64,000 nt of DNA from an uncultured Elusimicrobia bacterium (GCA_964484135.1 CAZAEL010000004.1:19164-83163); one strand, 5' to 3'; counted from the stretch's first letter, positions 27,608-61,675 are shown. Program-made: numbers and translations. Notes: generated from the sequence alone by a model not told the origin.

Positions 27608-28840
27608 ATGCCACGCGCCAAACCCGCTGACGGCTCCCTGACCCCCGCGGAGGAGCTGGACCTGCTGCACAAGATCACGGACATCATCGGGTCCACCCTG
27701 GACCTCAAGACCATCCTGCAGGAGATCGTCTCCCTGGTGAGCCGGATGACCAAGGCCGACGCCTGCTTCCTGTACCTGCACGAGCCCTCCCAGCAGAGCC
27801 TGGTGCTCTCCGCCTCCAAGACGCCTCACCCGGGGGAGATCGGCTCCCTCCGGCTGAAGCTCGGGGAAGGCATCACCGGCTGGGTGGCCCAGAACCGCAA
27901 GCCCCTGGCCGTTCCGGAACGGGCCCACGAGGACCCGCGCTTCAAGTTCTTCCAGAACCTGCCCGAGGACAGGTACGAGGCCTTCCTGTCCGTGCCCATC
28001 CTGGCGAAGGACAAAGTCATCGGCGTGATCAACGTCCAGCACCGCAAGCCCTACGCCCACAGCGAGCGGGCCGTGAAGCTCCTGACCACCATCGCCCAGC
28101 AGGTGGGCGGCGCCATCGAGAACGCGCGGCTCTACGAGGAGACCAAGCGCAAGGCCCAGGCCATCCAGACCCTTTCCGCCGTGTCCCACACCGTGGCGTC
28201 GGACCGGTATCCCCAGGAGGTCCTGCAGTTGATCGTGTCCATGACGGCGTCCCTGCTGGGGTCCAAGATCTGCTCCGTCATGCTGCTGGACGACGACGGG
28301 AAGGAACTGCACATCGCCGCCACCCAGTCCCTGTCCGAGGCGTACCGCAACAAGCCCCCCATCAAGGTGGGCCAGAGCATCTCCGGCCTGGCCGTCCAGC
28401 AGAAGGCCCCCATCACGGTCCCGGACGTGCGCAAGGACAAGCGGTTCTTCGCGCCGGACATCGCCGCGGCCGAGGGGCTGGTGTCACTCCTTTCCGTCCC
28501 CATGCTTTTCAAGGACAAGGCCGTCGGCGTGATCAACACCTACACCGCGCACGAGCACGCCTTCAGCAAGGAGGACATCGCGGTCCTCCAGGCCGTGGCC
28601 AACCAGTGCGCCTCGGCCATCGTCCACACGCGCCTGCTCTCCGAGAAGCTGGCGGCCCAGGAGGCCCTGGAAACGCGCAAGCTGGTGGAACGGGCCAAGG
28701 GCGTGCTGATGAAGACCCGCGGGCTCTCCGAGCCGGAGGCCTTCCGGGAAATCCAAAAACAGAGCATGGACCGGCGCAAGACCATGAAGGAAATCGCCGA
28801 AGCCGTGCTGCTCGCCGCGGAACTGGGTGAAAAAAAATAA
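27608..28840 (+). CDS. One-component GAF-GAF-ANTAR RNA-binding antiterminator
   Basis: Two GAF domains (GEGITGWVAQ...EAFLSVPI...VIGVINVQ; GQSISGLAV...SLLSVPM...AVGVINTY) and a C-terminal ANTAR (LETRKLVERAKGVLM...GLSEPEAFREIQKQSMDRRKTMKEIAEAVL); no receiver domain. Confidence 0.92.
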   Translation: MPRAKPADGSLTPAEELDLLHKITDIIGSTLDLKTILQEIVSLVSRMTKADACFLYLHEPSQQSLVLSASKTPHPGEIGSLRLKLGEGITGWVAQNRKPLAVPERAHEDPRFKFFQNLPEDRYEAFLSVPILAKDKVIGVINVQHRKPYAHSERAVKLLTTIAQQVGGAIENARLYEETKRKAQAIQTLSAVSHTVASDRYPQEVLQLIVSMTASLLGSKICSVMLLDDDGKELHIAATQSLSEAYRNKPPIKVGQSISGLAVQQKAPITVPDVRKDKRFFAPDIAAAEGLVSLLSVPMLFKDKAVGVINTYTAHEHAFSKEDIAVLQAVANQCASAIVHTRLLSEKLAAQEALETRKLVERAKGVLMKTRGLSEPEAFREIQKQSMDRRKTMKEIAEAVLLAAELGEKK

Positions 28841-28846
28841 AAAACC

Positions 28847-28919
28847 GTGCTTCTGTGCTGCAGTGCTTCCGTTGAAAGCATTGAACCGCAGGACCGCAGC
28901 ACCCCCGCACGGCAGCACT
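28847..28919. repeat. Octamer-repeat palindromic element, copy 1
   Basis: GTGCTTCT GTGCTGCA GTGCTTCC ... GCAGGACC GCAGCACC CCCGCACG GCAGCACT. Confidence 0.75.
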
Positions 28920-28924
28920 TATCT

Positions 28925-30613
28925 ATGATCCGCCTGTCCCTCGCCCAGATCAACAGCACCGTCGGCGACCTGCCCGGCAATTTGGAGAAGGTCCTGGACC
29001 ACGCCCGGCGCGCCCGCGAAGAGGGGGCCGACCTGGTCCTCTTCCCGGAGCTCTGCCTGAGCGGGTACCCCCCGGAAGACCTCCTGCTGCAGCCCCGCTT
29101 CACGGCCGACAACGCCGCCGCCCTGGAAAAGGCGGCCAAAACCCTTCCGCGCGGCCTCGCCGCGCTCGTGGGCTTCGCCGAGGGCGCCCCGGGCCGGCTC
29201 TACAACGCCGCCGCCCTGGTCCTGGACGGGCGGGTGCGGGCCGTGTACCGCAAACAGCGCCTGCCCAACTACGGCGTCTTCGACGAACAACGCTACTTCG
29301 TCGCCGGGCGAAAGCCCCTGCTGTTCCGGGTCCGGGACGTCACGGCCGGCGTCACCGTCTGCGAAGACATCTGGGTCCCCCGCGGCCCGGCCCTGCAGGC
29401 GGCCCGGGCGGGCGCCCGCCTCGTCCTCAACCTGTCCGCCAGCCCGTACCACGCGGGCAAAAGCTCGGAGCGCCTGAAAACGCTGAAAGACCGCGTGCGG
29501 GAGACGGGCGCGGCCTTCGCGTACTGCAACGCGGTGGGCGGGCAGGACGAGCTGGTGTTCGACGGCGGCAGCCTGGTCCTGGACGGCCGGAACCGCCTCC
29601 TGGCGCGGGCGCCCCAGTTCGAGGAGGCCCTCCTCACCGTGGACCTGGACCTTCCGGCCGCGCGCAAGCCGCCGCGGGGGGCGCTGGCCCTTTCCCTGCC
29701 CGCCGCCCCTCCCGCGCCCCTTTCGCCTCCTTCGCGGACGTCCGCGCTCCGCGCGGAGCCGCTTCCGGAGCTGGAAGAAATATACACCGCCCTGGTCACG
29801 GGCACCCGGGACTATCTGCGCAAGAACGGATTCCAAAAAGCGGTGATCGGCCTGTCCGGCGGCATTGACTCCTCGCTGGTGGCCTGCGTGGCCGCGGACG
29901 CCCTGGGGAAAGACAACGTGACCGGGGTCACGCTCCCCTCGAAATTCAACTCCACGGAGACCCGCTCGGACGCCCGGCTCCTGGCCGAAAACCTGGGGAT
30001 CGCGTTCCACAGCGTGCCCATCCAGGGGATCGTGGACGAATGCCTGAAGGCCCTGAAACCCCTCTTCGGGGACAGGCCCCCCGACATCGCCGAAGAAAAC
30101 CTGCAGGCCCGCGTGCGGGGGCTGCTCCTCATGGCCCTGTCCAACAAGTTCGGCTGGATGGTGCTGACCACGGGGAACAAGTCCGAGACCTCCGTCGGGT
30201 ACTGCACCCTGTACGGCGACACCGCCGGCGGGTTCGCCGTGATCAAGGACATCCCCAAGACCCTGGTGTACCGGCTCTGCGAATGGCGCAACGAAAAGGC
30301 CGCGCGGGCGCCGATCCCCCGGAGCGTCTTCGACCGTCCGCCCACGGCCGAACTCCGGCCCCACCAGACGGACCAGGACTCCCTGCCGCCCTACGACCTC
30401 CTGGACCGGATCATCGCCTTGTACGTGGAACAGGACAGGGATCTTTCGGACATCGCCAAGCGCGGCGTGCCCCCGGAGACCGCGGCCAGGACGCTGCGGC
30501 TCATCGACGCCAGCGAACACAAGCGCCGCCAGGCCCCGCCGGGCGTCAAGATCACGCCCCGGGCCTTCGGCCGCGACCGCCGCATGCCGCTCACCAATAA
30601 ATACAAAGGATAG
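28925..30613 (+). CDS. nadE: Glutamine-dependent NAD+ synthetase
   Basis: Nitrilase-like domain with E-K-C triad (FPEL, YRKQ, VCEDIW) plus synthetase motifs GLSGGIDSS, ENLQARVRG, TTGNKSE and PPTAELRP.Q.D.DSLP; start MIRLS 28925. Confidence 0.95.
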   Translation: MIRLSLAQINSTVGDLPGNLEKVLDHARRAREEGADLVLFPELCLSGYPPEDLLLQPRFTADNAAALEKAAKTLPRGLAALVGFAEGAPGRLYNAAALVLDGRVRAVYRKQRLPNYGVFDEQRYFVAGRKPLLFRVRDVTAGVTVCEDIWVPRGPALQAARAGARLVLNLSASPYHAGKSSERLKTLKDRVRETGAAFAYCNAVGGQDELVFDGGSLVLDGRNRLLARAPQFEEALLTVDLDLPAARKPPRGALALSLPAAPPAPLSPPSRTSALRAEPLPELEEIYTALVTGTRDYLRKNGFQKAVIGLSGGIDSSLVACVAADALGKDNVTGVTLPSKFNSTETRSDARLLAENLGIAFHSVPIQGIVDECLKALKPLFGDRPPDIAEENLQARVRGLLLMALSNKFGWMVLTTGNKSETSVGYCTLYGDTAGGFAVIKDIPKTLVYRLCEWRNEKAARAPIPRSVFDRPPTAELRPHQTDQDSLPPYDLLDRIIALYVEQDRDLSDIAKRGVPPETAARTLRLIDASEHKRRQAPPGVKITPRAFGRDRRMPLTNKYKG

Positions 30614-36145: not shown

Positions 36146-36922
36146 ATGGCCCCCCTTAGCCGTCACCTCGCGTACTCCGCCGCCCTCCACTTCGCCCTGC
36201 TGTTCGGCCTGCTCATCGTTGCGGCCCGCTCCCGGCCCCCGCGGAAGTTCTACAGCGTGCAGTTCCTGGGAGGGGCGTCGGGCTTCGGCACGGGCAGGCT
36301 GGAGCCGGCGCCCGCGCCCGCCAAAGCGCCCGTGGCCGCGCCGCCGAAGGCCCCGCCCGCCGCGGAGAAGGTCAAGGAAAAGCCCCGCCCCGGCGCGGAC
36401 AAGAACAAGATCTCGGTCTCCAAGGAAAAAGGCAAGGAGAAGAAGCCCCCGGCCAAGGCAAAGGCCGCGCCGGAAAAAGAGGCGCCTTCCTCCGCCGTCC
36501 CGCGATCCAAAGGCGTGCCCGGCGGCCGCGGGGAGTCCGCCAAGGGCCGCGGCGACAGCCTGGCCGCCAAGTACGGCCCCGTGGGCGGCGTGGGCACCGC
36601 CCTGGAAATCGGGGGCTTCGGGCCGGGCGGCCAGCCCACGCCCGACAGCCGCTTCCCCTATGCCTACTACGTCACGGAAATCTACCGGCGTCTCTGGACC
36701 AACTGGGCGTACCGGGAAGCCACCACCAAGGAATGCGTGGTGGTGTTCATGATCCGGCGGAGCGGCGAGGCCGCTGACGTCAAGATGGCGGAGTCTTCCC
36801 GCGATTCCATCTTCGACCAACTGGCCCTGCGGGCCGTGTCCAATTCCTCCCCCTTTCCCCCTTTGCCGGCGGGCTATCCGGAGCCGGACCTGCCCGTGTT
36901 CGTGCGGTTCCGGCTGGAATGA
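36146..36922 (+). CDS. TonB/TolA-like energy transducer
   Basis: N-terminal S..LH TM anchor, Pro/Lys-rich linker, TonB_C-like tail (SS.DSIFDQLALRAV...PFPPLP). Confidence 0.85.
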   Translation: MAPLSRHLAYSAALHFALLFGLLIVAARSRPPRKFYSVQFLGGASGFGTGRLEPAPAPAKAPVAAPPKAPPAAEKVKEKPRPGADKNKISVSKEKGKEKKPPAKAKAAPEKEAPSSAVPRSKGVPGGRGESAKGRGDSLAAKYGPVGGVGTALEIGGFGPGGQPTPDSRFPYAYYVTEIYRRLWTNWAYREATTKECVVVFMIRRSGEAADVKMAESSRDSIFDQLALRAVSNSSPFPPLPAGYPEPDLPVFVRFRLE

Positions 36923-36941
36923 CCCGGCGCCGTCGGGCTTC

Positions 36942-36970
36942 TTGACGAGGGCCGCTTTTTGTCCTATAGT
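36942..36970 (+). promoter_or_regulatory. sigma70 promoter
   Basis: TTGACG, 17 nt, TATAGT. Confidence 0.75.
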
Positions 36971-36984
36971 ACCTTCACAACAAC

Positions 36985-37031
36985 GGGCTAAGGCAGTCCT
37001 CCTCAAAGTTTACGAGGAGGGCTTTTTTTTT
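36985..37031 (+). promoter_or_regulatory. Leader attenuator (degenerate ANTAR-like hairpin overlapping an intrinsic terminator)
   Basis: GGGCT-AAGGC-AGTCC overlaps terminator AGTCCTCCTC..GAGGAGGGC-T9, downstream of the promoter and upstream of the APC gene. Confidence 0.55.
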
Positions 37032-37051
37032 GCCGCGCCCTCAACGCTTTC

Positions 37052-39019
37052 ATGTTCGAAAAAATCAAAGAGCTGATCTTCGGCAGGCCCAAGAACCCCC
37101 TGGACCCCCGGGTGTTCCACAACATCTCCCTGGTGGCTTTCTTCGCCTGGGTGGGGCTGGGCGCGGACGGATTGTCCTCCTCCTGTTACGGCCCGGAGGA
37201 GGCCTTCCACGCCCTGGGCCCCTACACCCATTTGGCCATCCCCCTGGCCCTGGCCGTGGCCGCCACGGTCTTCATCCTCTCCGCCGCCTACTCCCAGATC
37301 ATCGAACTGTTCCCCTCGGGCGGGGGCGGGTACCTGGTGGCCTCCAAACTGATCGGTCCCTACTCGGGGCTCATGTCCGGCTGCGCCCTGCTGGTGGATT
37401 ACATCCTCACGATCGCCATCTCCGTGGCCGCGGGCGTGGACGCGGTCTTCAGCTTCCTGCCGCCGGGGCTCGTCTCCTGGAAGGTCCATGCCACCATCCT
37501 CTGCCTCCTGGTCCTCATGACCTTGAACCTGCGGGGCGTCAAGGAATCCATCCTGGTCCTTACGCCCATCTTCGTCGTGTTCCTGTTCACCCACGGAATA
37601 ACGATCTTTTACGGCATTTTTTCCCACGGGACGGAGCTGCCGGCGCTCGTGACGGACACGGTGGCGCAGACCCGGTCGGGCATCTCCGAAATCGGCTTTT
37701 TTGCCATGGCCGTGATCTTCCTGCGGGCCTTCTGTCTGGGCGGCGGCACCTTCACCGGCATCGAAGCCGTCTCCAACGGCCTGCAAATCCTGCGGGAGCC
37801 CCGCGTGGAGACCGGCAAGCGGACCATGGTCTACATGGCCGTGTCCCTGGCCTTCACCGCGGGCGGCATCCTGGTGAGCTACATCCTCAACGACGTCAGC
37901 CACGTGCCGGGCCAGACGTTGAACGCCACCCTGGTGCACAGGATCTCCGACGCCTGGCCCGGCGGGCATGTCTTTTTCCTGATCACCCTCCTGTCGGAAG
38001 GCGCCCTGCTGTTCGTGGCCGCCCAGGCGGGCTTTCTGGCGGGCCCCCGGGTCATGTCCAACATGGCGGTGGACCACTGGCTGCCCCGCCGCTTCACCAA
38101 CCTGTCGGACCGGCTCGTGATCAAGGACGGCGTCCTGGTCCTCGGGCTGGCCGCCCTGGCCATGATCCTCTACACCGGCGCCTCGGTGCGGATCCTGGTG
38201 GTCATGTACTCCATCAACGTGTTCCTGACGTTCACCTTTTCCCAATTCGGGGTGGCGCGCCATTGGTTCAAGTCCCGGGAACCCGGCTGGCTCAAAAAAC
38301 TGACCATCATGTCCGCGGGCCTGCTGGTGACGGTGGTCATCCTCACCGCCACGATCATGATCAAATTCACGGAAGGGGGATGGGTCACGCTGTCCGTCAC
38401 CGGGACCCTCATGATCTTCTGTCTCTGGGTCCATCGCCATTACGCGGACACGGCCAAGGCCCTCCGCCATTTGGACGACATCCTGACCAACATCCCCCCC
38501 CCTGCGGCCAAGCCGGAGGTTGCGGCCAAGTCCCCCTCCAAGCCCGCGGCCATCCTCATGGTCAACGGGTACAACGGCATGGGCATCCACTCTTTCCTGG
38601 CCATCCACCGTTTCTTTCCCGGCCATTTCAAAAATTTCATCTTCCTTTCGGTGGGGGTGATAGACTCGGACCGGTTCAAGGGCAAGGCCGAGATCCAGAA
38701 CCTGGAGGAGTCCATCCAGAAGGACCTGGACAAATACGTGCGCCTGGCCAACAGCATGGGGCTGTACGCCGAATCCCGCATGCTGCTGGAAACGGACGTG
38801 ATCGACGGGCTCGAAAAACTGTGCCAGCAGACGGCGGAGGAATGGCCCAAGAAGGTGTTTTTCACCGGACAGCTCACGTTCGAAGGAGAAACCTTCTGGA
38901 CCCGGTTCCTGCACAACCAAACGTCCTTCACCCTCCAGCGCCGGCTGATCTTCGACGGCCTGGAGACCGTGATCCTGCCCATCCGGGTGAGGCTGAACCA
39001 GGCGCCCCTGCCCAAATAA
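37052..39019 (+). CDS. APC-superfamily permease, YdaO/KimA-like
   Basis: GADGLSSSCYGPEEAF, GGGGYLVA, TGIEAVSNG and YSINVFLTFT motifs; about 12 TMs plus a cytoplasmic C-domain. Confidence 0.85.
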   Translation: MFEKIKELIFGRPKNPLDPRVFHNISLVAFFAWVGLGADGLSSSCYGPEEAFHALGPYTHLAIPLALAVAATVFILSAAYSQIIELFPSGGGGYLVASKLIGPYSGLMSGCALLVDYILTIAISVAAGVDAVFSFLPPGLVSWKVHATILCLLVLMTLNLRGVKESILVLTPIFVVFLFTHGITIFYGIFSHGTELPALVTDTVAQTRSGISEIGFFAMAVIFLRAFCLGGGTFTGIEAVSNGLQILREPRVETGKRTMVYMAVSLAFTAGGILVSYILNDVSHVPGQTLNATLVHRISDAWPGGHVFFLITLLSEGALLFVAAQAGFLAGPRVMSNMAVDHWLPRRFTNLSDRLVIKDGVLVLGLAALAMILYTGASVRILVVMYSINVFLTFTFSQFGVARHWFKSREPGWLKKLTIMSAGLLVTVVILTATIMIKFTEGGWVTLSVTGTLMIFCLWVHRHYADTAKALRHLDDILTNIPPPAAKPEVAAKSPSKPAAILMVNGYNGMGIHSFLAIHRFFPGHFKNFIFLSVGVIDSDRFKGKAEIQNLEESIQKDLDKYVRLANSMGLYAESRMLLETDVIDGLEKLCQQTAEEWPKKVFFTGQLTFEGETFWTRFLHNQTSFTLQRRLIFDGLETVILPIRVRLNQAPLPK

Positions 39020-39026
39020 CCGCGTC

Positions 39027-39055
39027 TTGACACCCCGCGCCCCTTCTGGTAGGAT
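39027..39055 (+). promoter_or_regulatory. sigma70 promoter
   Basis: TTGACA, 17 nt, TAGGAT with TG extension. Confidence 0.8.
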
Positions 39056-39064
39056 GGGAAAGAA

Positions 39065-39153
39065 GGCACATCGTGGTGCCGTCAACGGGCCGGAGCACGA
39101 CGCCCGACGGACAAGGAAGTCCTCCTCATATGTCGCGACGAGGAGGATTTTTT
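39065..39153 (+). ncRNA. ANTAR-type dual-hexaloop leader with terminator
   Basis: P1 GGCAC-ATCGTG-GTGCC (39065-80); P2 GGAC-AAGGAA-GTCC (39109-22) overlapping terminator GTCCTCCTC..GAGGAGGA-T6. Confidence 0.8.
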
Positions 39154-39351
39154 ATGCCTTTCTGGATCCCCTGGCACACGGTTCCCGCCCTGGCGGCCTA
39201 TTTTTCGGACGAGGCCGCGGAAGAGGCCCCGGACCCCTGCGACCGCCCGCCGCCGCGGGGAGCCGGAACGGACGCGGCGCCGGACTTCCGGTTCTGGAAC
39301 AACTTCTTTGCGAGGAAATCCCATGAGCAGCCCCTCCGCCGATATTGTTGA
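39154..39351 (+). CDS. Possible 65-aa small protein (MPFWIPWHT...)
   Basis: GAGGAGG SD 7 nt before ATG 39154, buried in the terminator 3' arm; no recognisable motif. Confidence 0.3.
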   Translation: MPFWIPWHTVPALAAYFSDEAAEEAPDPCDRPPPRGAGTDAAPDFRFWNNFFARKSHEQPLRRYC

Positions 39352-41149
39352 GCTTTCCCCCGTCAAATACCTGCTGGGCTGCGCCGCGGCCGCCGCGGCC
39401 CTCCTCCTGATCGGGAAAATCCATCCCTTTCCGGCCTGGCTGGTGGCCGCGGAGGTCCTGGCCGCCGTCCTGGCCCTGTTCACCTTCGGCTCCATCAAGT
39501 ACCGTCTGGACAAAAACGCCCTCACGTACGGCGCCGCGCTCGTCATCGTCGCGACCTTCTGGGAAAGCTGGTGGAGCGGCTCGTCCCTGAAGTCGGCCCT
39601 GGCCGCCGGGGAATACGGCGCGCTCTGGGAATTCGCCCGGCACAATTTCCTGACCCTCCACGGACTGGACCGCCTCATCCACGCGGACACCATGCTGTTC
39701 ATCCTGGGGCTGACCTTCTTCGTGGCGGTCATCGCCCAGACGCGCCTCCTGGAAACCTCCAGCTTCGCGGTCCTGGACAAGCTCAAGGGCCGCGTGGTCC
39801 CGACCGTGGTCATCCTCACGGCGCTGGTGTCCGCGGCCTCCGGCGTCCTGGACGGCGTCTCCATGATCGGGCTCATGATCCGGACCCTGGTGATCATCCT
39901 GCTCCTGAGCGGGGCCGACAGGGCGGTCGTCGTTTACGCGGTCATGGTGTCAACGGTCGTGACCACGGTCTGCGGCATGTGGCTGGCGTACGGCGAGCCC
40001 CCCAACCTCATCATGAAAGCCAACCTCCACCCTTATCTGGACGACGCTTTTTTCCTGCGGTACTGCCTGCCCGCGGCCCTGGGGAGTTGGGCCATCGTGG
40101 CCTGGAACGTGGGACGGCGGCTGAAGGGCCGGAAAGTGGAGTTGTCGAAACTGGACATCCTGGACCGGCACGTGGCGGACGTGCGGTTCCTGCAGGCGTC
40201 CCGCCACGGGCAGGTGCTCACGCCCATCGGGTTCCTGGAAGGGAACAAAGAGGCGGTGGAAGGACACTACGAAGGGGTCCGAAAACGTCTCCTGGCCGGC
40301 GTGCCCCTGGGCGAGGCCCTGACCAATGAACGGGTCCCCAGGAGCGCGCGCCTGGAACTCATGGGCCGTTACCTGTCCGAGGACCTCGCCCAGACCGCGG
40401 ACGATTATTACGAACACGTGTACGGAAAGAACGACGGCCAGGCGGGCGAGTCCGCGGTGCGGCTGGGCCTGGCCCTGTCCCGCGTGCGGGGGCGGCGCGT
40501 CCTGGCCCAGCGGGCGGCGGCGCTGTCCTTCGTCCCCTTCATCGGGCTCCTCGTGGCCCACGCGGTCAACCACGATGTGCCGCTCTTTTTGGCCTCCTTC
40601 GCGGGGTTCGCGGCGGCCTTCCTGGGCATCGCGACTCTGCCCAAAACGCGGGGCCTGGCCCTGCGGGAGGCGGCCCATGAGTTCAAGGAGTACCTCTTCC
40701 TTTTGCCCCTCTTCCTGTCCATCACCCTGCTGCAGAAGACCGGCTTCTTCGGCCTGATCTCGGACCTCCTGCACCTGGGCATCGAGCGGCTGGGCGCCTC
40801 CCACGTGGCGTACGGCCAGTTCTGGTTCTGCACGGTGCTCTCCGCCCTCCTGGACAACAACGTGGTGGCGGACTTCGCGGGCCGGGCCCTCCAGGGCCTG
40901 AGCGTGAGCCTCCTCCACCTCTTCGCCATGGCCCAGATCGCGGGCTACGCCCTGGGCGGCTGCTGGACCCACATCGGCTCGGCCCAGTCCGTGGTGGCGT
41001 ATTCCTTCATCCAGCGGGAGATCGACGGGCGGTACACCCCCTTCCAGTGGATCAAGGCCATGACGCCGATCGTTCTGGAGATCGCCATTTGGATCAGCGT
41101 GGTCGTGTACGTGGAAGGGTGGCTCTTCCAAAAACTGCACATCCAATAA
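39323..41149 (+). CDS. IT-superfamily (NhaD/ArsB/SLC13-like) transporter with soluble insert
   Basis: ASGVLDGVS, GEPPNLI, SALLDNN and LGGCWTHIGSAQSVV repeat motifs; about 12 TMs; GAGGA RBS before ATG 39323. Confidence 0.75.
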   Translation: MSSPSADIVELSPVKYLLGCAAAAAALLLIGKIHPFPAWLVAAEVLAAVLALFTFGSIKYRLDKNALTYGAALVIVATFWESWWSGSSLKSALAAGEYGALWEFARHNFLTLHGLDRLIHADTMLFILGLTFFVAVIAQTRLLETSSFAVLDKLKGRVVPTVVILTALVSAASGVLDGVSMIGLMIRTLVIILLLSGADRAVVVYAVMVSTVVTTVCGMWLAYGEPPNLIMKANLHPYLDDAFFLRYCLPAALGSWAIVAWNVGRRLKGRKVELSKLDILDRHVADVRFLQASRHGQVLTPIGFLEGNKEAVEGHYEGVRKRLLAGVPLGEALTNERVPRSARLELMGRYLSEDLAQTADDYYEHVYGKNDGQAGESAVRLGLALSRVRGRRVLAQRAAALSFVPFIGLLVAHAVNHDVPLFLASFAGFAAAFLGIATLPKTRGLALREAAHEFKEYLFLLPLFLSITLLQKTGFFGLISDLLHLGIERLGASHVAYGQFWFCTVLSALLDNNVVADFAGRALQGLSVSLLHLFAMAQIAGYALGGCWTHIGSAQSVVAYSFIQREIDGRYTPFQWIKAMTPIVLEIAIWISVVVYVEGWLFQKLHIQ

Positions 41150-41176
41150 AAAAGCCGGCGGTTTTCGGCCGCCGGC
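41147..41176 (-). terminator. Intrinsic terminator between convergent genes
   Basis: A-run, then GCCGGCGG / CCGCCGGC 8-bp stem. Confidence 0.6.
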
Positions 41177-41214
41177 GCCCTTTGCCGTTCCTCCCCTCTC
41201 CCAAAAACGGACCC

Positions 41215-42684
41215 CTACCCCCTGGAGGACTCCTTGCCGGTCAACAACGAACGGACCCGGTCCAGCGTCCTGTCGTTGATCAACACCCAGAGGACATCCC
41301 CCTCCTCCAAAACCGTGTTCCCCCCCGGCACGATGAAAGCCTCCCCGCGGCACACCAGCGCCACCCGGCTTTCCTCCGGAAAATCCAGCTCCATGAGCGA
41401 CTTGCCGGCGATCTTGGCGCCGTAGGGCACGATGAAATCCTCCAGCCTCATGTCCACGCCTTCCAGGTCATCCATCTCCAGGGGAGACCGTCGGCGCGGC
41501 GCCAGGGGCACGTCCACGCCCAGCAGCCGCGCCACCCAGGGGATGGACGTCCCCTGGATCAGGGCCGACGTCAGGACGATGAAGAACACCAGGTCGAAGA
41601 TGACGTCCGCCTCCGGGACGCCCGCCAAACGGGGGAAGGTGGCCAGCACGATGGGGACGGCGCCGCGCAGCCCCACCCAGGCCACCATCAGCTTCTCGCG
41701 GACGCTCATCCCGGAGAACGACAGGGACAGGAACACGCTGGCCGGGCGGGCCGCGACGATCAGGAAGGCCGAGGCCAGGAGCCCCGGTCCCGCCACCGCG
41801 CCGAGCCGTTTGGGAAAGACCAAAAGCCCCAGGGCCAAAAACATGGCGATCTGCATGAGCCAGGCCAGCCCGTCGTGGAACCGCCCCAGGCTGCGCCGGT
41901 GCAGGAACCGGCTGTTTCCCAGCACCAGGCCGGCCACGTACACCGCCAAAAACCCGTTGCCCCCCACGGACGAAACCGCGCCGTAGATCAAGAGGACCAG
42001 GGCCATGGTGAGCGGCGGGTACAGGCCCTCGTGCTCCAGACGCATCCGGTTGACCAGGAGGACCGCGCCTTTCCCCAGCGCCCAGCCCGCGGCCAAACCC
42101 ACGGACATCTGGAGGACGAAAGAAAGGACCATCCCGCCCCAGCCGGCTTCCGGCCGCGTCATGAGCCCCAGGAAGGCGGTGGTCAGGAACACGGCCATGG
42201 GGTCGTTGCTGCCGGATTCCAGCTCCAACAGGGGCTTGAGCCGCCCCTTGAGGCTCACGTTTTTGGACCGGAGCACGGAGAAGACCGCGGCCGCGTCCGT
42301 GGAAGCCACGATGGAGCCCAAGAGGAACCCTTCCAGCCAGGAAAACCCCAGGGCGAACACGGCGAAGGCCCCCACCAGGAGCGCCGACACCAGGACTCCG
42401 CCGCTGGCCAGAGACAGCCCCTGCCAAAGGACGGGCCGCACGCTCCGCCAGTCCGTCTCCAGGCCGCCGGCGAACAGGATGTAGCACAACGCGACCACGC
42501 CCAGGAACTGGGCCTGCCAGGGGTCGTTGAAATAGATGCCTCCGGGACCGTCGGACCCCGCCAGCATCCCGATGGCCAAAAACAAGAGCAGCGCCGGCAC
42601 GCCGAGGCGGCCGGAGGCCTTGCTGGCGACGACGCTCAGGGCCACCAGCGCCGCCACCGCCAGCAGGATATGCTCGATGGGCAT
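41215..42684 (-). CDS. K+/H+ antiporter NhaP2 (CvrA) family
   Basis: GMLAGSDGPGGI, ASTDAAAVFS, LELESGSNDP and WVGLRGAVPIVLA motifs plus C-terminal TrkA_C; start 42684 or 42693. Confidence 0.92.
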   Translation of the reverse strand: MPIEHILLAVAALVALSVVASKASGRLGVPALLLFLAIGMLAGSDGPGGIYFNDPWQAQFLGVVALCYILFAGGLETDWRSVRPVLWQGLSLASGGVLVSALLVGAFAVFALGFSWLEGFLLGSIVASTDAAAVFSVLRSKNVSLKGRLKPLLELESGSNDPMAVFLTTAFLGLMTRPEAGWGGMVLSFVLQMSVGLAAGWALGKGAVLLVNRMRLEHEGLYPPLTMALVLLIYGAVSSVGGNGFLAVYVAGLVLGNSRFLHRRSLGRFHDGLAWLMQIAMFLALGLLVFPKRLGAVAGPGLLASAFLIVAARPASVFLSLSFSGMSVREKLMVAWVGLRGAVPIVLATFPRLAGVPEADVIFDLVFFIVLTSALIQGTSIPWVARLLGVDVPLAPRRRSPLEMDDLEGVDMRLEDFIVPYGAKIAGKSLMELDFPEESRVALVCRGEAFIVPGGNTVLEEGDVLWVLINDRTLDRVRSLLTGKESSRG

Positions 42685-42767
42685 CGTCGTCATGCCATAT
42701 TTCTACACTGTTTGCCGCGCGATTGCAAACGGCGCGAAAAAATCGGGCGCGGCCCGGCATTTTTTCC

Positions 42768-42796
42768 TTGACATAAAAACGGAGCCGGTATATAAT
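42768..42796 (+). promoter_or_regulatory. sigma70 promoter of amtB1-glnK1
   Basis: TTGACA, 17 nt, TATAAT: perfect consensus. Confidence 0.88.
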
Positions 42797-42802
42797 AGAC
42801 GC

Positions 42803-42969
42803 GAGTACAGAGTAGTACTCCTTATCATATCAGGACGCCGACGTCCTCCTTGAGGCTCATGCCCGGGGAGGATTTTTTATTTTGTCGGCGGCCGCTGGGC
42901 CGTTCCCGAGACGAGGGCGTCTCGACTCTTAGTTTGGGGGCTAAGAAGCGAGGCGCCTCTTTTGTTTTT
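42803..42969 (+). ncRNA. ANTAR-type leader with two tandem terminators
   Basis: P1 GAGTAC-AGAGTA-GTACTC; P2 GGAC-GCCGAC-GTCC overlapping terminator 42843-42883; third hexaloop CGAGAC-GAGGGC-GTCTCG overlapping terminator 42913-42969. Confidence 0.8.
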
Positions 42970-43036
42970 CGGAGAGGACGCTCCCGCCGCCCACACGGGG
43001 GGTCAAACGGGCTCAAATTCACTAAGGAGGAAATCC

Positions 43037-44572
43037 ATGTCACGCTTCAAGAAAAGATGGCTGGGCGGGATACTGCTCTCGCTCATCGCCGTGGGGGTTC
43101 TGACCCCCGCGTTGTTCGCAGAAGAAACGGTCGCGGCCGCTGCGGAAGCCGCGGGACCGAGCCTCGCCGACCAGGTGGCTTCCCTCACCCAGCAGGTGGC
43201 GGACCGGAAAGTGGCGGCCGACACCCTCTGGGTGCTGGTCACCGCGTTCCTGGTGTTCTGGATGAACGCGGGCTTCGCCCTGGTGGAATCGGGCATGTGC
43301 CGCGCCAAGAATGCGGTCAACATCCTGTCCAAGAACTTCATCGTGTTCGCCTGCTCCTCCATCGCGTTCTACGTGCTGGGCTGGGGCCTGATGTTCGGGG
43401 ACGGGAACGGCTTCGTCGGCACCCAGGGCCTTTGGTTCTTGGGCGGGGCGGACAACAGCCCGGCCACCGGCGACGCGTACCGGGGCGTGTATTCGTCCAT
43501 CGCCTGGACGGGCGTGCCCCTCGGCGCCAAGTTCTTCTTCCAATTGGTGTTCGCGGGGACCGCCGCGACCATCGTGTCCGGCTGCGTGGCGGAACGCATC
43601 AAGTACATCAGCTTCATCCTGTTCTCCTTCCTGCTGGTGGGCATCACCTATCCCGTCATCGGCCACTGGATCTGGGGCGGCGGCTGGCTGGCCCAAAAGG
43701 GCTTCTGGGACTTCGCCGGCTCCACCGTGGTCCACACCGTGGGCGGCGTGGCGGGCCTGGCGGGCATCCTGCTCCTGGGTCCCCGCATCGGCAAGTACCG
43801 TCCGGACGGCACCCCCAACGCCATCCCGGGCCACAACATGACCTCGGCGACGCTGGGCTGCCTCATCCTGTGGCTGGGCTGGTTCGGGTTCAACCCCGGC
43901 TCCACCATGGCGGCCGACCCCGGCGCCATCTCCCACATCCTGAACACCACCAACCTGGCGGCCGCGGCCGGCCTGTTGACGGCCACCCTCACCGCCTGGA
44001 TCGTGATGGGCAAGCCGGACCTGGGCATGACCATCAACGGCTGCCTGGCGGGCCTGGTGGCCATCACGGCCCCCTGCGCCTTCGTGAGCCTGCCGGCCTC
44101 CATCGTCATTGGCGGCATCGGCGGCGTCCTGGTGGTCTTCGCGGTGCTCTTCTGGGACAAGCTCAAGATCGACGACCCCGTGGGCGCCCTGGCCGTGCAC
44201 CTGGTGAACGGCATCTGGGGCACCCTGTCCGTGGGCCTCTTCGCCAAGGACAAGATCACGGGCGTGGCCACCGGCAACGGCCTCTTCAACGGCGGCGGCT
44301 TCGGCCTGCTGACCACCCAGGTCATCGGGTCCTTGAGCGCCATCGCCTTCACCCTGGTGACCGCCGTCATCTTCTGGTCCGTCATCAAAGCCGTCCTCGG
44401 CATGCGGGTGTCCCGCGACGAGGAAATCCGCGGCCTGGACATTGACGAGCACGGCATGGAGGCCTACGCCGGCTTCCAGATCTACCTGACGGAATACGGC
44501 CTCAGCCCCGTCTCGGGCGGCAACGGCGGCTCGGCGCCCAAGCTCGAAAAAGAGCTGGCCGGGAGGAAATAA
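43037..44572 (+). CDS. amtB: Ammonium transporter
   Basis: AAGGAGG RBS, signal peptide, [24 protein letters not shown] and AVHLVNG (both pore His present). Confidence 0.96.
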
Positions 44573-44574
44573 CC

Positions 44575-44916
44575 ATGAAAATGATCATCGCCATCATCCA
44601 GCCCCACAAGATCGCGGACGTCAAGAAGGCCCTGGACGACGCCCAGATCCACCTCATGACGGTCTCCAACGTCCTCGGGGCGGGGCGGCAGAAGGGGTAC
44701 GAAGAGAGCTACCGCGGCGCGAAGTACGAGATCAACCTCCTCAAGAAGGTCCGTCTCGACATCGCGGTGAACGACGACTACGTGGACGCCGCCATCTCGG
44801 CCATCTCCAGATCGGCCAAGACCGGCAACATCGGGGACGGCAAGATCTTCGTCATGCCCCTCGAGGAAGTCGTCCGCATCCGCACCAACGAGCGCGGCAA
44901 GGTGGCCATCGGCTGA
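44575..44916 (+). CDS. glnK: P-II nitrogen regulator (Tyr51 present)
   Basis: GAGRQKG...YRGAKY T-loop, [19 protein letters not shown]; follows amtB. Confidence 0.95.
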
Positions 44917-44943
44917 ACAGGCCCTGACCTCCGCCGTTCATTC

Positions 44944-44983
44944 AAGGGCGCGGGAGAGGAATAACCTCTCCCGCGCCCTTTCG
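44944..44983 (+). terminator. Intrinsic terminator after glnK1
   Basis: 16-bp perfect stem AAGGGCGCGGGAGAGG / CCTCTCCCGCGCCCTT with AATAA loop; short T tail. Confidence 0.7.
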
Positions 44984-44984
44984 C

Positions 44985-45014
44985 TTGACAAGCTTTCGGG
45001 ACCTATGTTATAGT
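44985..45014 (+). promoter_or_regulatory. sigma70 promoter of amtB2-glnK2
   Basis: TTGACA, 18 nt, TG-T-TATAGT. Confidence 0.8.
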
Positions 45015-45022
45015 CCCAGCCC

Positions 45023-45141
45023 GGACACAGTGTCGTGTCCGCCAAAGCAACCCTCAACCAAGAAGTCTCTTCTCAAGAAGCCTGTCCGGCCTCTCTCCGG
45101 GGTGTGAGGGGCCGGCCGTTGCTCGAGACAGAGCCGTCTCG
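45023..45141 (+). ncRNA. ANTAR-type dual-hexaloop leader with large structured spacer
   Basis: P1 GGACAC-AGTGTC-GTGTCC (45023-40); spacer closed by GCAAC/GTTGC (45047-45122); P2 CGAGAC-AGAGCC-GTCTCG (45124-41). Confidence 0.7.
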
Positions 45142-45262
45142 CCTAAAACAAAGCCCGCGGGGGTCCTTCCCCGGCGGGCGCGTTCCCCATCACAGAACCG
45201 TCATAACGATGTCCGGGCCCGGCCCGGGCGTCCTTACTTCCTATAAGGGGGTCTTGGGTATT

Positions 45263-46630
<1,368 letters not shown>

Positions 46631-46643
46631 AAAAGAGGACGCC

Positions 46644-46985
46644 ATGAAATACATCGTCGCCATCATTCAACCCGACAAGCTCGACGAGGTCCTGGAGGAG
46701 CTGGAGAAAAAGGAGATCCACCTGGTCACCGTGTCCAGCGTCATGGGGCGCGGCCGGCAGAAGGGCATCTCCCAGGTGTACCGCAGCCACAAGGAGGCGG
46801 GCAGCCTGCTGAAGAAGACCAAGCTGGAGATCGCGGTCAACGACGAGTTCGTGAAGCCCGCCATGGAAGCCATCTACAAGGGCGGCCACACCGGCAACGT
46901 GGGGGACGGCAAGATCTTCGTTCTGGACCTGAAGGAATGCCAGCGGATCAGCAACGGCGAGACCGGCGGCCCCGCCATCGGCTGA
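46644..46985 (+). CDS. glnK: P-II family protein (Tyr51 absent)
   Basis: GRGRQKG, YRSHKE T-loop, TGNVGDGKIFV; follows amtB2. Confidence 0.92.
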   Translation: MKYIVAIIQPDKLDEVLEELEKKEIHLVTVSSVMGRGRQKGISQVYRSHKEAGSLLKKTKLEIAVNDEFVKPAMEAIYKGGHTGNVGDGKIFVLDLKECQRISNGETGGPAIG

Positions 46986-47052
46986 AAACATGCCTTCGGC
47001 CCTCTTCCCGACGGAAAACCGGACCACGGCCGTGCCCCCGGCGATTTTTTTC

Positions 47053-47081
47053 TTGACAAAAAAACCGGGGCGTGCTAAAGT
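47053..47081 (+). promoter_or_regulatory. sigma70 promoter of glnA
   Basis: TTGACA, 17 nt, TAAAGT with TG extension. Confidence 0.82.
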
Positions 47082-47089
47082 ATTGTCAA

Positions 47090-47185
47090 GCACAAGGTCG
47101 TGCGCATTCCATAATCCGGTTGTCCACGGAAGCGGGACGATGACGTCCTCCTCAAAGCTGTCTTTGGGGAGGACTTTTTGTTTTT
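47090..47185 (+). ncRNA. ANTAR-type dual-hexaloop leader with terminator
   Basis: P1 GCAC-AAGGTC-GTGC (47090-103); P2 GGAC-GATGAC-GTCC (47135-48) overlapping terminator GTCCTCCTCAAAG-CTGT-CTTTGGGGAGGAC-TTTTTGTTTTT. Confidence 0.82.
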
Positions 47186-47268
47186 CAGGGGGGAACGGCC
47201 GCGCGAGCGGCCTCTAAATCGGGGAGAGGCGAAAAAACTCTCTTTATCCAAACGCAAGGAGCCTCGTC

Positions 47269-48762
47269 ATGGAAGCCATAAAGGAAAGATCGGTCGTCAA
47301 GAGCGTCGCCAGCGCCAACGGCGGGCGCGCCGCCAAGCCCAAGAACGCCAAGGAAGCCATCGAGCTGGCCCGCAAGTCCGGGGTCAAGATCGTGGACTAC
47401 AAGTTCATGGACCTGGTGGGGACGCTGCAGCACATCTCCTACTCCGTGGAAAAACTGAAGGAAAGCGTTTTCGAGGAGGGCATCGGCTTCGACGGCTCCA
47501 GCATCCGGGGCTTCCAGGCCATCAACGAGTCCGACATGCTGCTCATGCCGGACCCGACCACCGCCTTCATCGACCCGGTCCTCAAGGTCCCGACCATCTC
47601 CTTCCTCTGCAACGTGAAGGACCCGGTGACCGGCAAGGGTTACAAAAAGGACCCGCGGAGCATCGCCCAGGCCGCCGAGGAATACCTGATCAAGACCGGC
47701 ATCGCCACCGAGAGCTGGTGGGGCCCGGAGGCGGAGTTCTTCGTGTTCGACAACGTCCGCTTCGACGTGGGCCAGCGGTCCTCCTTCTACGAGGTGGACT
47801 CCGAGGAAGGCATCTGGAACGCCGGCAAGAACGGCGGGGAAGAGGCCAACCTGGGGTACAAGATCCGCAACAAGGAGGGGTATTTCCCCACCCCGCCCAT
47901 GGACACCCTGCAGGACTTCCGCTCCGAGGCCATCCTCCGGATGATGGAGGCGGGTCTGGACATCGACCTGCACCACCACGAGGTGGCCACCGCGGGCCAG
48001 GGCGAGATCGGCGTGGGCGTCCGCACCCTCACCTCCGCCGCCGACCAGATGGCCCTCTACAAGTACATCCTGAAAAACGTGGGGCGCGAACACGGCAAGA
48101 CGGTGACCTTCATGCCCAAGCCCCTGTACGGCGACAACGGCACCGGCATGCACACCCACCAGTCCCTGTGGAAGAGCGGCAAGCCCCTGTTCCACGACCC
48201 CAAGGGGTACGGCTGCGTGTCCCAATTGGCGCTGTGGTACATCGGCGGCCTCTTGAAGCACGCCCCGGCCCTCTGCGCCATCTGCAACTCCACCACGAAC
48301 TCCTACCGGCGCCTGGTGCCGGGCTACGAAGCCCCCACCAACCTGGCCTATTCGGCCCGGAACCGGTCGGCCGCGGTGCGCATCCCCATGTATTCCAACG
48401 AGCCCAAGCAGAAACGCATCGAGTACCGCCCGCCGGACGCGGCCTCCAACCCGTACCTGGCCTTCGCCGCGCTGCTCATGGCCGGCTTGGACGGCATCCA
48501 GAACAAGATCGACCCGGGCAAGCCCTTCGAGGCGGACATCTTCGAGCTCCACGGCGAGGAGGCCAAGGCCATCCCGCAGGTGCCGGGCTCCCTGGAAGAG
48601 GCCCTGGACGCGCTGGAGAAGGACAACGCCTTCCTGACAAAGGGCGGCGTCTTCTCCAAGGAGTTCATCGAGACCTGGATCGACTACAAGCGGAAGAAGG
48701 AGCACGACTTCGTGCGGCTCCGGCCCCATCCGGCGGAGTTCTTCCTGTACTTCGACTGCTGA
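47269..48762 (+). CDS. glnA: Glutamine synthetase type I
   Basis: [47 protein letters not shown] and RNRSA.VRIP motifs. Confidence 0.97.
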
Positions 48763-48808
48763 TCCGCTCAGAGCCGTAACCCCGCGGAGATCCCCGCGGG
48801 CGCAGGGT

Positions 48809-48890
48809 CCGCACAAGGTTGTGCGGAAAAGATCCGAACGAAGGCGTTCGTCGCTTCTCATGAAGGGGACGAACGCCTTCGTTGTTTTTT
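48809..48890 (+). ncRNA. ANTAR-type dual-hexaloop leader with terminator (between glnA and porin)
   Basis: P1 CCGCAC-AAGGTT-GTGCGG; 8-nt linker; P2 CGAAC-GAAGGC-GTTCG embedded in the 5' arm of a 20-bp terminator (48838-48882) plus TGTTTTTT. Confidence 0.85.
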
Positions 48891-48910: not shown

Positions 48911-50056
48911 ATGGCCCACAAAATGAAAGGGGAGGTTCACATCATGAGGTTAAACAAAATCAACGCGAAGCTGTTGAGGGCTCTGGGAGCGCTCCTGTTG
49001 CCCGCGGCCCTGGCCAGCCAGGGGTTCGCCGAGGGGCCGTCCATCGGCGGCTTCGTGGACTTCGGGTACAACTACAACTTCAACGGCATGGCCGCCAACA
49101 CGCTCCGGTCGTTCGACAGCAAATCCAACAGCTTCACGCTGCAGAACGCCGAGGTCGTGGTGTCGGGCAAATCCGACAAGGACGTGGCCTATCGGGTGGA
49201 CCTGGATTACGGGTTCGACGCCACCAACACGAACTACCTGAACAACAACGCCGGCGACGAGTTCGACATCCAGCAGGCCTTCATCACCGTCCCTTGCCCC
49301 TTGACGGGCGGGGCCTTTACGGCCGGAAAATTCGTCACGCTGCACGGGGCCGAAGTGATCGAGGCCAAGGACAACTTCAACACGTCCCGCGGGTTCCTGT
49401 TCAACTACGCCATCCCGCTCCACCACACGGGCGTGAAGTACGACAAGGCCTTCGGGGACTTGGCCCTGACGGGCGCCGTGGTCAACGGCTGGGACAACCT
49501 GTATGAAAACAACAAGGGCAAAACGTTCCACGGCATGGCCGCCTACACCTTCTCCCCGAAGCTGTTCGCCAGCCTGGGAGGCACCTACGGCCCGGAACAG
49601 GCTTCCCCCACGGCGGCCGGCGTCAGCACGGAAAAAAACAGCCGCGGCCTGGTGGACGCCCTGGTGAAGGCCATGCCCACGGACAAACTCACCCTGATCG
49701 CCAACTGGGACTGGGGCGTGGAGGAGGGCCTCACCCCGGCCGGGACCGACACCACCCAAAACTGGGCGGGCCTGGCGTTGCACGCCAATTACATGCTCAC
49801 CGACGTCTACTCCGCGGCTCTGCGCTGGGAGACCTTTGACGACGAAGGGTCCCGCACCGCGGCCTTGACGCCGGCGGCCGTGAACGGTCAAGTGCTCCAC
49901 TCTCTGACCGCCACCCTCCAGCACAAGATGAACGACGTGATCACGCGTCTGGAGTTCCGGCAGGACACGTCCTCCAAAAAAGTCTTTGTGGACGACAAGG
50001 GCATGCCGGACGACAGCCAGAGCACCGTCGGGTTGCAGTGGATCTACGCCTTCTGA
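48911..50056 (+). CDS. Outer-membrane beta-barrel porin (putative bbp2/OmpL-like)
   Basis: Signal peptide; GGFVDFGYNYNFN, GKFVTLHGAEVI...N.N.SR.FLF..AIP..HTG motifs; C-terminal YAF; start 48911 or 48944. Confidence 0.8.
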   Translation: MAHKMKGEVHIMRLNKINAKLLRALGALLLPAALASQGFAEGPSIGGFVDFGYNYNFNGMAANTLRSFDSKSNSFTLQNAEVVVSGKSDKDVAYRVDLDYGFDATNTNYLNNNAGDEFDIQQAFITVPCPLTGGAFTAGKFVTLHGAEVIEAKDNFNTSRGFLFNYAIPLHHTGVKYDKAFGDLALTGAVVNGWDNLYENNKGKTFHGMAAYTFSPKLFASLGGTYGPEQASPTAAGVSTEKNSRGLVDALVKAMPTDKLTLIANWDWGVEEGLTPAGTDTTQNWAGLALHANYMLTDVYSAALRWETFDDEGSRTAALTPAAVNGQVLHSLTATLQHKMNDVITRLEFRQDTSSKKVFVDDKGMPDDSQSTVGLQWIYAF

Positions 50057-61618: not shown

Positions 61619-61675
61619 GGGATGCCGCGGACCGGGCCTTCAGCGCCTCCCCGTGCCGCCCAAGCGCGCCGGGCC

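Follow-up and report, generated by a model that had tools for sequence, protein, structure and literature searches.

Control of transcription termination by ANTAR proteins has been linked repeatedly with nitrogen metabolism. Genome searches in 2012 identified ANTAR motifs in front of P-II, amtB, and glutamine and glutamate synthase genes (Ramesh et al. 2012, PMC3369931), and GnfR acts by antitermination on nif genes (nifH and nifEN), glnK, and amtB in Geobacter sulfurreducens (PMC2995071). The RNA requirements have been studied for the eut system, where the features of the eutP P1 hairpin were defined by mutagenesis (PMC3369931), and where, in the EutV-RNA structure, the ANTAR domain makes base-specific contact with G4 (the G at position 4 of the loop) alone, and lengthening of the linker by 20 nt abolishes antitermination by EutV (PMC8934654). 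The minimal ANTAR site has since been redefined as one hexaloop (PMC8934654), and a curation rule for such RNAs accepts linkers of 2–25 nt and tolerates a single point variation within the loops (PMC8164766). GAF-ANTAR proteins are listed in two papers as an uncharacterised architecture.

Here we describe the leader of the glutamine synthetase gene, glnA, in a window of 64,000 nucleotides (the whole stretch of DNA that was analysed) from an uncultured Elusimicrobia bacterium. We consider it likely that this leader is an ANTAR-type transcription attenuator, with a GAF-GAF-ANTAR protein encoded at 27608–28840 as its likeliest regulator and with read-through under nitrogen limitation. This reading is supported by the anatomy of the leader, by an independent covariance model (R1), by sister leaders in the same window, and by the ANTAR gene and its synteny.

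Organization of the glnA leader

The glnA gene and its leader contain the following features.

47053–47081, plus strand: sigma-70-like glnA promoter, with TTGACA (47053–47058), a 17-nt spacer, and TAAAGT (47076–47081); read from the sequence and found in a promoter scan
47090–47103, plus strand: P1 hairpin GCAC-AAGGTC-GTGC; from sequence and folding, and aligned to P1 of model R1
47104–47133, plus strand: P1–P2 linker, 30–31 nt, with a weak hairpin of its own predicted (CCGG...CCGG region)
47135–47148, plus strand: P2, the putative antiterminator hairpin GGAC-GATGAC-GTCC, extendable to GGGAC/GTCCT at 47134–47149
47145–47174, plus strand: intrinsic terminator GTCCTCCTCAAAG-CTGT-CTTTGGGGAGGAC; from sequence, terminator scan, and folding
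47175–47185, plus strand: U-rich terminator tail, 11 nt, TTTTTGTTTTT in DNA and UUUUUGUUUUU in RNA
47269–48762, plus strand: glnA, type I glutamine synthetase, 497 aa, with the RBS AAGGAG upstream; Pfam Gln-synt_N and Gln-synt_C

The promoter scores 10 of 12 consensus matches in the scan and has a TG-extended −10, and the predicted transcription start is at approximately 47088. P1 has four base pairs and the hexaloop AAGGUC, with A1 and G4 and with A-U and C-G closing pairs, and P2 has four to five base pairs and the hexaloop GAUGAC, with G1 and G4, and aligns to the second helix of R1. The GUCC at 47145–47148 is common to the 3' strand of P2 and to the first four nucleotides of the terminator 5' arm, and the terminator contains 13 pairs (one G-U and seven G-C) with the loop CUGU. 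The tail is separated from the glnA ATG (47269) by 83 nt, and the promoter scan found no second promoter-like site between the terminator and glnA. The glnA product matches NCBIfam TIGR00653 at 637 bits, above the cut-off.

A first-pass annotation of this DNA had described a TTGACA-17-TAAAGT promoter, the two hairpins, and the sharing of the P2 3' strand with the first four nucleotides of a 13-bp terminator, followed by an 11-nt T-rich tail about 85 nt before the start codon, and each of these is borne out by the sequence, the scans, and the folding. To this we add that the P1–P2 linker is 30–31 nt long and that loop 2 begins with G instead of the canonical A. The annotation was also right to see no sigma-54 −24/−12 motif: a search for a glnAp2-type box (TGGCAC-N5-TTGCW) between 38826 and 49778 gave no match at two or fewer mismatches. 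T-rich runs lie directly 5' of the −35 boxes of amtB1 (42743–42757) and glnA (47039–47052) on the plus strand, and one of the two carries a small GC hairpin; these could be either tracts resembling UP elements or terminators with an insulating role.

Folded alone, P1, P2, and the terminator have predicted energies of −3.8, −7.4, and −20.2 kcal/mol, respectively, with z = −4.9 for the terminator, and none of 200 shuffled sequences folds as well as the terminator. In free RNA, P2 alone is predicted to close further through G1-C6 to give a 6-bp stem with a tetraloop. By these energies the 13-bp terminator greatly exceeds P2 in stability, and we infer from this that termination is the default state.

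We propose that transcription would begin near 47088 from the sigma-70-type promoter and, by default, would stop at the intrinsic terminator (47145–47185), 83 nt before glnA. An active ANTAR protein would engage P1 at the 5' end of the transcript and then P2, which would be kept closed by the bound protein and would block nucleation of the terminator. Closed P2 would withhold GUCC from the terminator 5' arm until RNA polymerase clears the U-tract, and glnA would then be transcribed. The first-pass annotation had similarly suggested that glnA transcription ends in the leader unless P2 is stabilised, and this is supported at the levels of sequence, comparison, and covariance model, with termination itself as the predicted event.

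The leader resembles the eutP, nasF, and ami RNAs recognized by EutV, NasR, and AmiR in having two short hexaloop stems with G4 in both, and resembles eutP P1 in the A-U and C-G pairs closing its hairpin tops and in the A at position 1 of the first loop. As in dual-hexaloop antiterminators, P2 shares its 3' strand with the terminator and the two are mutually exclusive, and as with other dual-hexaloop RNAs the element lies in the 5' leader of a nitrogen-metabolism gene with an ANTAR protein encoded nearby. Two features depart from the canonical motif and, together with the weakness of the linker hairpin, count against our reading: the G at position 1 of loop 2 and the length of the linker. The first differs from the canonical motif in the window and in the orthologous leader of locus L001, whereas the orthologues in L163 and L161 have A. 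The linker of 30–31 nt is not short, unlike the 5–12 nt linkers of eut, but its length varies among related leaders, being 30 nt in L163, 10 nt in L001, and 7–11 nt in the window leaders of amtB1 and the porin gene. The long linkers of orthologues and paralogues are predicted to form a hairpin of their own in five of six cases, as is, weakly, that of the window glnA leader, and on this modelling such a hairpin may bring P1 and P2 near each other.

Related leaders in the window

Between 36.9 and 50 kb the window carries, all on the plus strand, genes for an amino-acid permease and a CitMHS-like transporter, amtB1-glnB1, amtB2-glnB2, glnA, and a BBP2 porin gene. Every one of these units begins with a related leader, and all except the porin have their own TTGACA-type promoter; promoters of the same type were found at 42768 and 44985 by the scan, and at 39027 and 36942 by reading the sequence. 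In three of the window leaders P1 begins 6–9 nt past the −10 hexamer. Apart from that of glnA, the putative attenuators are as follows.

36985–37031, plus strand: single-hairpin attenuator of the amino-acid permease gene (37052–39019), GGGCU-AAGGC-AGUCC overlapping the terminator GUCCUCCUC...GAGGAGGGC, with a 9-U run
39065–39156, plus strand: attenuator of the CitMHS-like transporter gene (39323–41149), with P1 GGCAC-AUCGUG-GUGCC, a 28-nt linker, P2 GGAC-AAGGAA-GUCC, and a terminator
42803–42884, plus strand: attenuator of amtB1-glnB1, with P1 GAGUAC-AGAGUA-GUACUC, an 11-nt linker, P2 AGGAC-GCCGAC-GUCCU, a terminator, and a U-tail
42907–42969, plus strand: second tandem attenuator of the amtB1 leader, CGAGAC-GAGGGC-GUCUCG overlapping a long interrupted terminator, then UUUUGUUUUU; from the MFE structure
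48808–48890, plus strand: attenuator between glnA and the porin gene, with P1 UCCGCAC-AAGGUU-GUGCGGA, a 7-nt linker, and P2 CGAAC-GAAGGC-GUUCG inside the terminator 5' arm

The tandem layout is also present in the amtB leader of L162 (8126–8175). The porin gene (48911–50056) is reached from glnA via its P1/P2/terminator element, which is kept in L163 and L001. The permease leader (36942–37031, plus strand) contains a promoter and one hairpin (36985–36999) with the five-base loop AAGGC, without P1, and its terminator shares the GUCCUCCUC arm with that hairpin. The CitMHS leader of L169 (19188–19232) contains P2 only. These single-hairpin leaders, and the two tandem terminators of amtB1, are unlike the two-hairpin RNAs; the single-hairpin leaders at 36985–36999 and in L169 fit the minimal one-hexaloop ANTAR site (PMC8934654).

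The amtB2 leader (ATG at approximately 45264) sits behind a TTGACA/18/TATAGT promoter and contains the plus-strand hexaloop hairpins GGACAC-AGTGTC-GTGTCC (45022–45041) and CGAGAC-AGAGCC-GTCTCG (45124–45141), about 90 nt apart. These hairpins are followed by strong GC hairpins instead of a U-tailed terminator, and the R1 score of this leader is no more than 6.5 bits; the leader may be a degenerate form of the element or a variant acting at the level of translation. Right after glnB1 there is a perfect 14-bp GC-rich hairpin (GGGCGCGGGAGAGG...CCTCTCCCGCGCCC, 44936–44981, plus strand) that abuts the amtB2 −35 box and probably terminates amtB1-glnB1, although the tail that follows it is no more than TTTCGC.

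On our reading, the glnA leader is part of a local regulon comprising about six leaders of this kind, those of the permease, the CitMHS-like transporter, amtB1-glnB1 (with two in tandem), glnA, and the porin; the leader of amtB2-glnB2 is a looser variant.

Pattern and covariance-model searches

Our own scanner, run over the window, required a pair of hexaloop hairpins, each with R at position 1 and G at position 4, and after them an overlapping terminator. Four clean cases were found, all on the plus strand at 39–49 kb, where approximately 0.05 are expected per shuffled window. Minus-strand scanner matches at 61644–61568, 47711–47650, and 19370–19256 were taken as chance, their R1 scores not being significant. 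The window contains 24 hairpins of the form AC-RNNGNN-GT against an expectation of 8.2 ± 3.1, and five leaders in the interval 39065–48850 account for 11 of the 24.

Rfam gave no match at the gathering score in the whole window, and at E values up to 10 gave no relevant family between 42700 and 47300, including no ANTAR-target RNA family. Because no ANTAR-target RNA match was available from Rfam, we built our own covariance model, R1, trained on six leaders of other genomes only (Elusimicrobia and Nitrospira; alignment A2, with sequences cut at the P1 base). The pairs in R1 are those of P1 and P2 only, the terminator helix having been left out because its register differs between the Elusimicrobia and Nitrospira members. 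Searching the window with filters off gave the following matches.

36913–37034: amino-acid permease leader, 17.9 bits, E 1.4e-3 (weak)
39065–39158: CitMHS-like transporter leader, 46.7 bits, E 4e-12
42804–42883: amtB1 leader, 53.3 bits, E 4e-14
47089–47186: glnA leader, 42.6 bits, E approximately 6e-11
48810–48888: porin leader, 13.9 bits, E 0.02 (weak)

In approximately 1.5 Mb of sequence covering glutamine-synthetase loci of many phyla, all nine R1 matches to untrained sequences score below 30 bits; six are in Elusimicrobia or Nitrospira loci, and the other three score 16.6–19.7 bits. The weak matches include one at 5864–5966 of a Pelotomaculum MAG (L033, 16.6 bits) and one at 3072–3159 of a Chloroflexota MAG (L047, 19.7 bits). 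The L033 match lies just 5' of glnA, in a Firmicute akin to Desulfotomaculum species with reported ANTAR nitrogen regulons.

When 16 members are aligned by fitting to R1, 93.4% of the cells pair, compared with 38–55% when the partners are slid, a statistic that leans toward structure because the alignment is model-fitted. Changes on both sides are seen in four of the five P1 pairs. The GGAC/GUCC stem of P2 is nearly invariant across the leader family, and P2 pairing is therefore backed by conservation, not by covariation. The structure of the glnA leader is not a product of chance.

Glutamine riboswitches and other cis-acting RNAs are known 5' of nitrogen genes in other phyla, and the glnA leader could by analogy be a protein-independent switch, whether a metabolite riboswitch (for example, one binding glutamine), a leader-peptide attenuator, or a T-box-like element. 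We regard this as extremely unlikely: no relevant Rfam family appears at E values up to 10 between 42700 and 47300, conservation is confined to two tiny hairpins and includes no core of ligand-pocket size, and the transcribed leader has no short open reading frame with a ribosome-binding site. Leader-peptide attenuation in particular was rejected, the sole reading frame across the leader (46990–47217) starting 5' of the promoter.

glnA leaders of related genomes

The best relatives of the glnA product, at 81–91% identity, are from Elusimicrobia or Elusimicrobiota MAGs. Genome and metagenome contigs provided close glnA relatives only at L001, L002, L081, and L082, and further orthologues were taken from exact-protein look-ups; L002 contributes no leader, its record being without upstream DNA. 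The order promoter-P1-P2-terminator is kept in the glnA leaders of L001/L082, L163–165, and L161, as compared here with the window.

Window: P1 GCAC-AAGGTC-GTGC, P2 loop GATGAC, linker 30 nt
L001: P1 AGCAC-AGTGTT-GTGCT, P2 loop GATGAT, linker 10 nt
L163: P1 GCAC-AGCGTT-GTGC, P2 loop AAAGAC, linker 30 nt
L161: P1 GGCAC-AAGCGT-GTGCC (without G4), P2 loop AATGAC, linker 21 nt

The P2 stem GGAC/GTCC is constant among these orthologous leaders, and the inner terminator pairs vary in a compensating way (CAAAG/CTTTG, CAG/CTG, and CA/TG). The motif is absent from approximately 155 other glnA loci, from other phyla and at 66% identity or less. In L081 and L162 glnA directly follows glnB without a leader of its own, and the amtB leader serves the whole operon; glnA-specific control is thus not universal in the lineage.

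The terminator lies 160 nt past the glnB2 stop codon, with no strong terminator in between, and might simply close the amtB2-glnB2 operon or act constitutively as a partial terminator, and 4-bp hairpins are common enough that P1 and P2 might be incidental to it. However, a sigma-70 promoter with 10 of 12 matches stands between glnB2 and the terminator, the leaders are enriched in AC-RNNGNN-GU hairpins, and R1, as an independent model, assigns the glnA leader an E value of 6e-11. The gene 5' of glnA is divergent in L001 (as seen in the sequence) and in L161 (from the gene table), and despite this the whole module is kept at both loci, showing that the terminator is not merely the end of an upstream operon. 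We therefore find this explanation very unlikely, and retain the ANTAR-type attenuator as the preferred reading.

A candidate regulator

A six-frame motif search identified one ANTAR domain in the window, encoded 18 kb from glnA and immediately upstream of nadE.

27608–28840, plus strand: GAF-GAF-ANTAR protein, 410 aa; Pfam ANTAR PF03861, 1.1e-22
28847–30613, plus strand: nadE, glutamine-dependent NAD synthetase, starting 6 nt after the GAF-GAF-ANTAR gene

The ANTAR domain aligns with those of Rv1626 (1e-15), NasR (1.6e-9), and EutV, and opposite the EutV RNA contacts R142/K143, K147, and M172 it has R, K, R, and M, respectively, on an inferred numbering offset. The first GAF domain (GAF1) is closest to the GAF domains of PtsP/EI-Ntr (3ci6, 2e-23; PRK11061, 7e-37) and NifA (TIGR01817, 6e-31), and the PtsP GAF domain binds glutamine (PMC4848567). 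Homologues of the protein at 57–98% identity that carry a source name are, among the matches listed, from Elusimicrobia or Nitrospira. The hairpin GGAGGAC-ATCGCG-GTCCTCC, with A1, G4, and AC/GT closing pairs, occurs inside the GAF-GAF-ANTAR coding region (28570–28589, plus strand), where R1 gives weak partial matches only; it could be a chance occurrence or an autoregulatory site.

The gene order in the Elusimicrobiota locus L162 is amtB-PII-glnA-[GAF-GAF-ANTAR]-gltB-gltD, within a porin-PII-amtB-PII-glnA cluster. In Nitrospira sp. Kam-Ns4a (L166) the order is [GAF-GAF-ANTAR]-leader-nadE-amtB-PII-glnD...glnA, and this leader contains a TTGACA promoter, P1 GGGAGAC-AACGAT-GTTTCCC, P2 AGGAC-AATGAC-GTCCT, and a terminator. 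The GAF-GAF-ANTAR gene is paired with nadE in L167–L170 as well as in the window, and this pairing is kept across Elusimicrobia and Nitrospira loci (L166, L167, and L169). Because of this conserved gene context, and because the protein and the RNA have a phyletic range in common, the GAF-GAF-ANTAR protein is most likely the regulator of the glnA leader.

The same leader could instead be an ANTAR-type attenuator under the control of another ANTAR protein whose gene lies beyond the window, such as a response regulator like GnfR, EutV, or NasT, with the GAF-GAF-ANTAR protein acting on other targets. The 64 kb are the visible part of the genome, and other ANTAR proteins, including response-regulator types, may exist beyond them; those nitrogen-related ANTAR regulators that have been characterised belong to the response regulators, the pseudo-receivers, or the NIT proteins; and the candidate gene is 18 kb away from glnA. 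We nevertheless think this unlikely, since an orthologue of the candidate sits between glnA and gltB in L162, another lies directly 5' of the R1-type leader before nadE-amtB-glnB-glnD in Nitrospira L166, close homologues and R1 leaders occur in the same two phyla, and the GAF domains of the candidate are of the nitrogen-sensing PtsP/NifA type. The GAF-GAF-ANTAR protein of the window thus remains our preferred regulator. From the set of controlled genes, the GAF similarity, and the GnfR precedent in Geobacter (PMC2995071), GAF1 plausibly reads nitrogen status, in the form of glutamine and/or 2-oxoglutarate, with read-through switched on under nitrogen limitation.

Comparison with GnfR and other nitrogen-related ANTAR regulators

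The system has an evident likeness to GnfK/GnfR of Geobacter, in which the ANTAR protein relieves premature termination in the leaders of nitrogen genes (PMC2995071). A Nitrospira leader (L071, 7612–7685) contains UGGC-AAAGGC-GCCA overlapping a terminator, with the same core as the GnfR site CAGGCAANGGCGCC, and the GnfR site can therefore be read as an ANTAR hexaloop hairpin, GGC-AANGGC-GCC, that overlaps a terminator. The two systems differ at the promoter and in the protein: the GnfR targets examined have RpoN-dependent −24/−12 promoters activated by GnfM, whereas the window promoters are sigma-70-like with no −24/−12 box, and GnfR is a phosphorylated response regulator whereas the window candidate is a GAF-GAF-ANTAR protein. 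Nor is glnA named among the Geobacter leaders listed as having terminator-like signals (PMC2995071). In having its sensor fused straight to ANTAR, with no kinase partner, the candidate is similar to NasR (NIT-ANTAR) and PAL (PAS-LOV-ANTAR), which are the one-component ANTAR regulators characterised so far (PMC7496416), but its sensor, unlike theirs, consists of tandem GAF domains of PtsP/NifA type.

Given the ANTAR motifs reported at nitrogen genes (PMC3369931) and the tested amtB and glnK leaders of Geobacter, the glnA leader is a further case of a known type of control. In a non-exhaustive literature search we found no functional study of GAF-ANTAR regulators, or of ANTAR in Elusimicrobia or Nitrospira, and no earlier description of a GAF-GAF-ANTAR pairing with these leaders in the two groups.

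Discussion

We have described a glnA leader in which two hexaloop hairpins and a terminator lie behind a sigma-70-type promoter. A broader proposal, which we put forward tentatively as a possibility rather than an expectation, is that the GAF-GAF-ANTAR protein, through a PtsP/NifA-like GAF domain sensing glutamine and/or 2-oxoglutarate, could serve as the principal nitrogen regulator in Elusimicrobiota and Nitrospirota. It would then run amtB-glnK, glnA, nadE, porin, and permease genes purely by antitermination from constitutive sigma-70 promoters, replacing control of the NtrBC/sigma-54 or GlnR/TnrA type, and its RNA substrates would tolerate structured linkers of 20–30 nt, single hexaloops, and tandem terminators.

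The glnA leader alone adds little to the 2012 survey that linked ANTAR motifs with nitrogen genes. If our reading is correct, however, glutamine synthetase and ammonium uptake in Elusimicrobia would be governed by an ANTAR antiterminator acting once transcription has begun, and by virtue of the shared leaders and regulator the same control would operate in Nitrospira, which are key nitrifiers. The GAF-ANTAR class would gain a concrete set of targets and a hypothesis for its ligand, glutamine or 2-oxoglutarate, and the leaders with long structured linkers or a single hairpin would probe the spacing rules derived from EutV.
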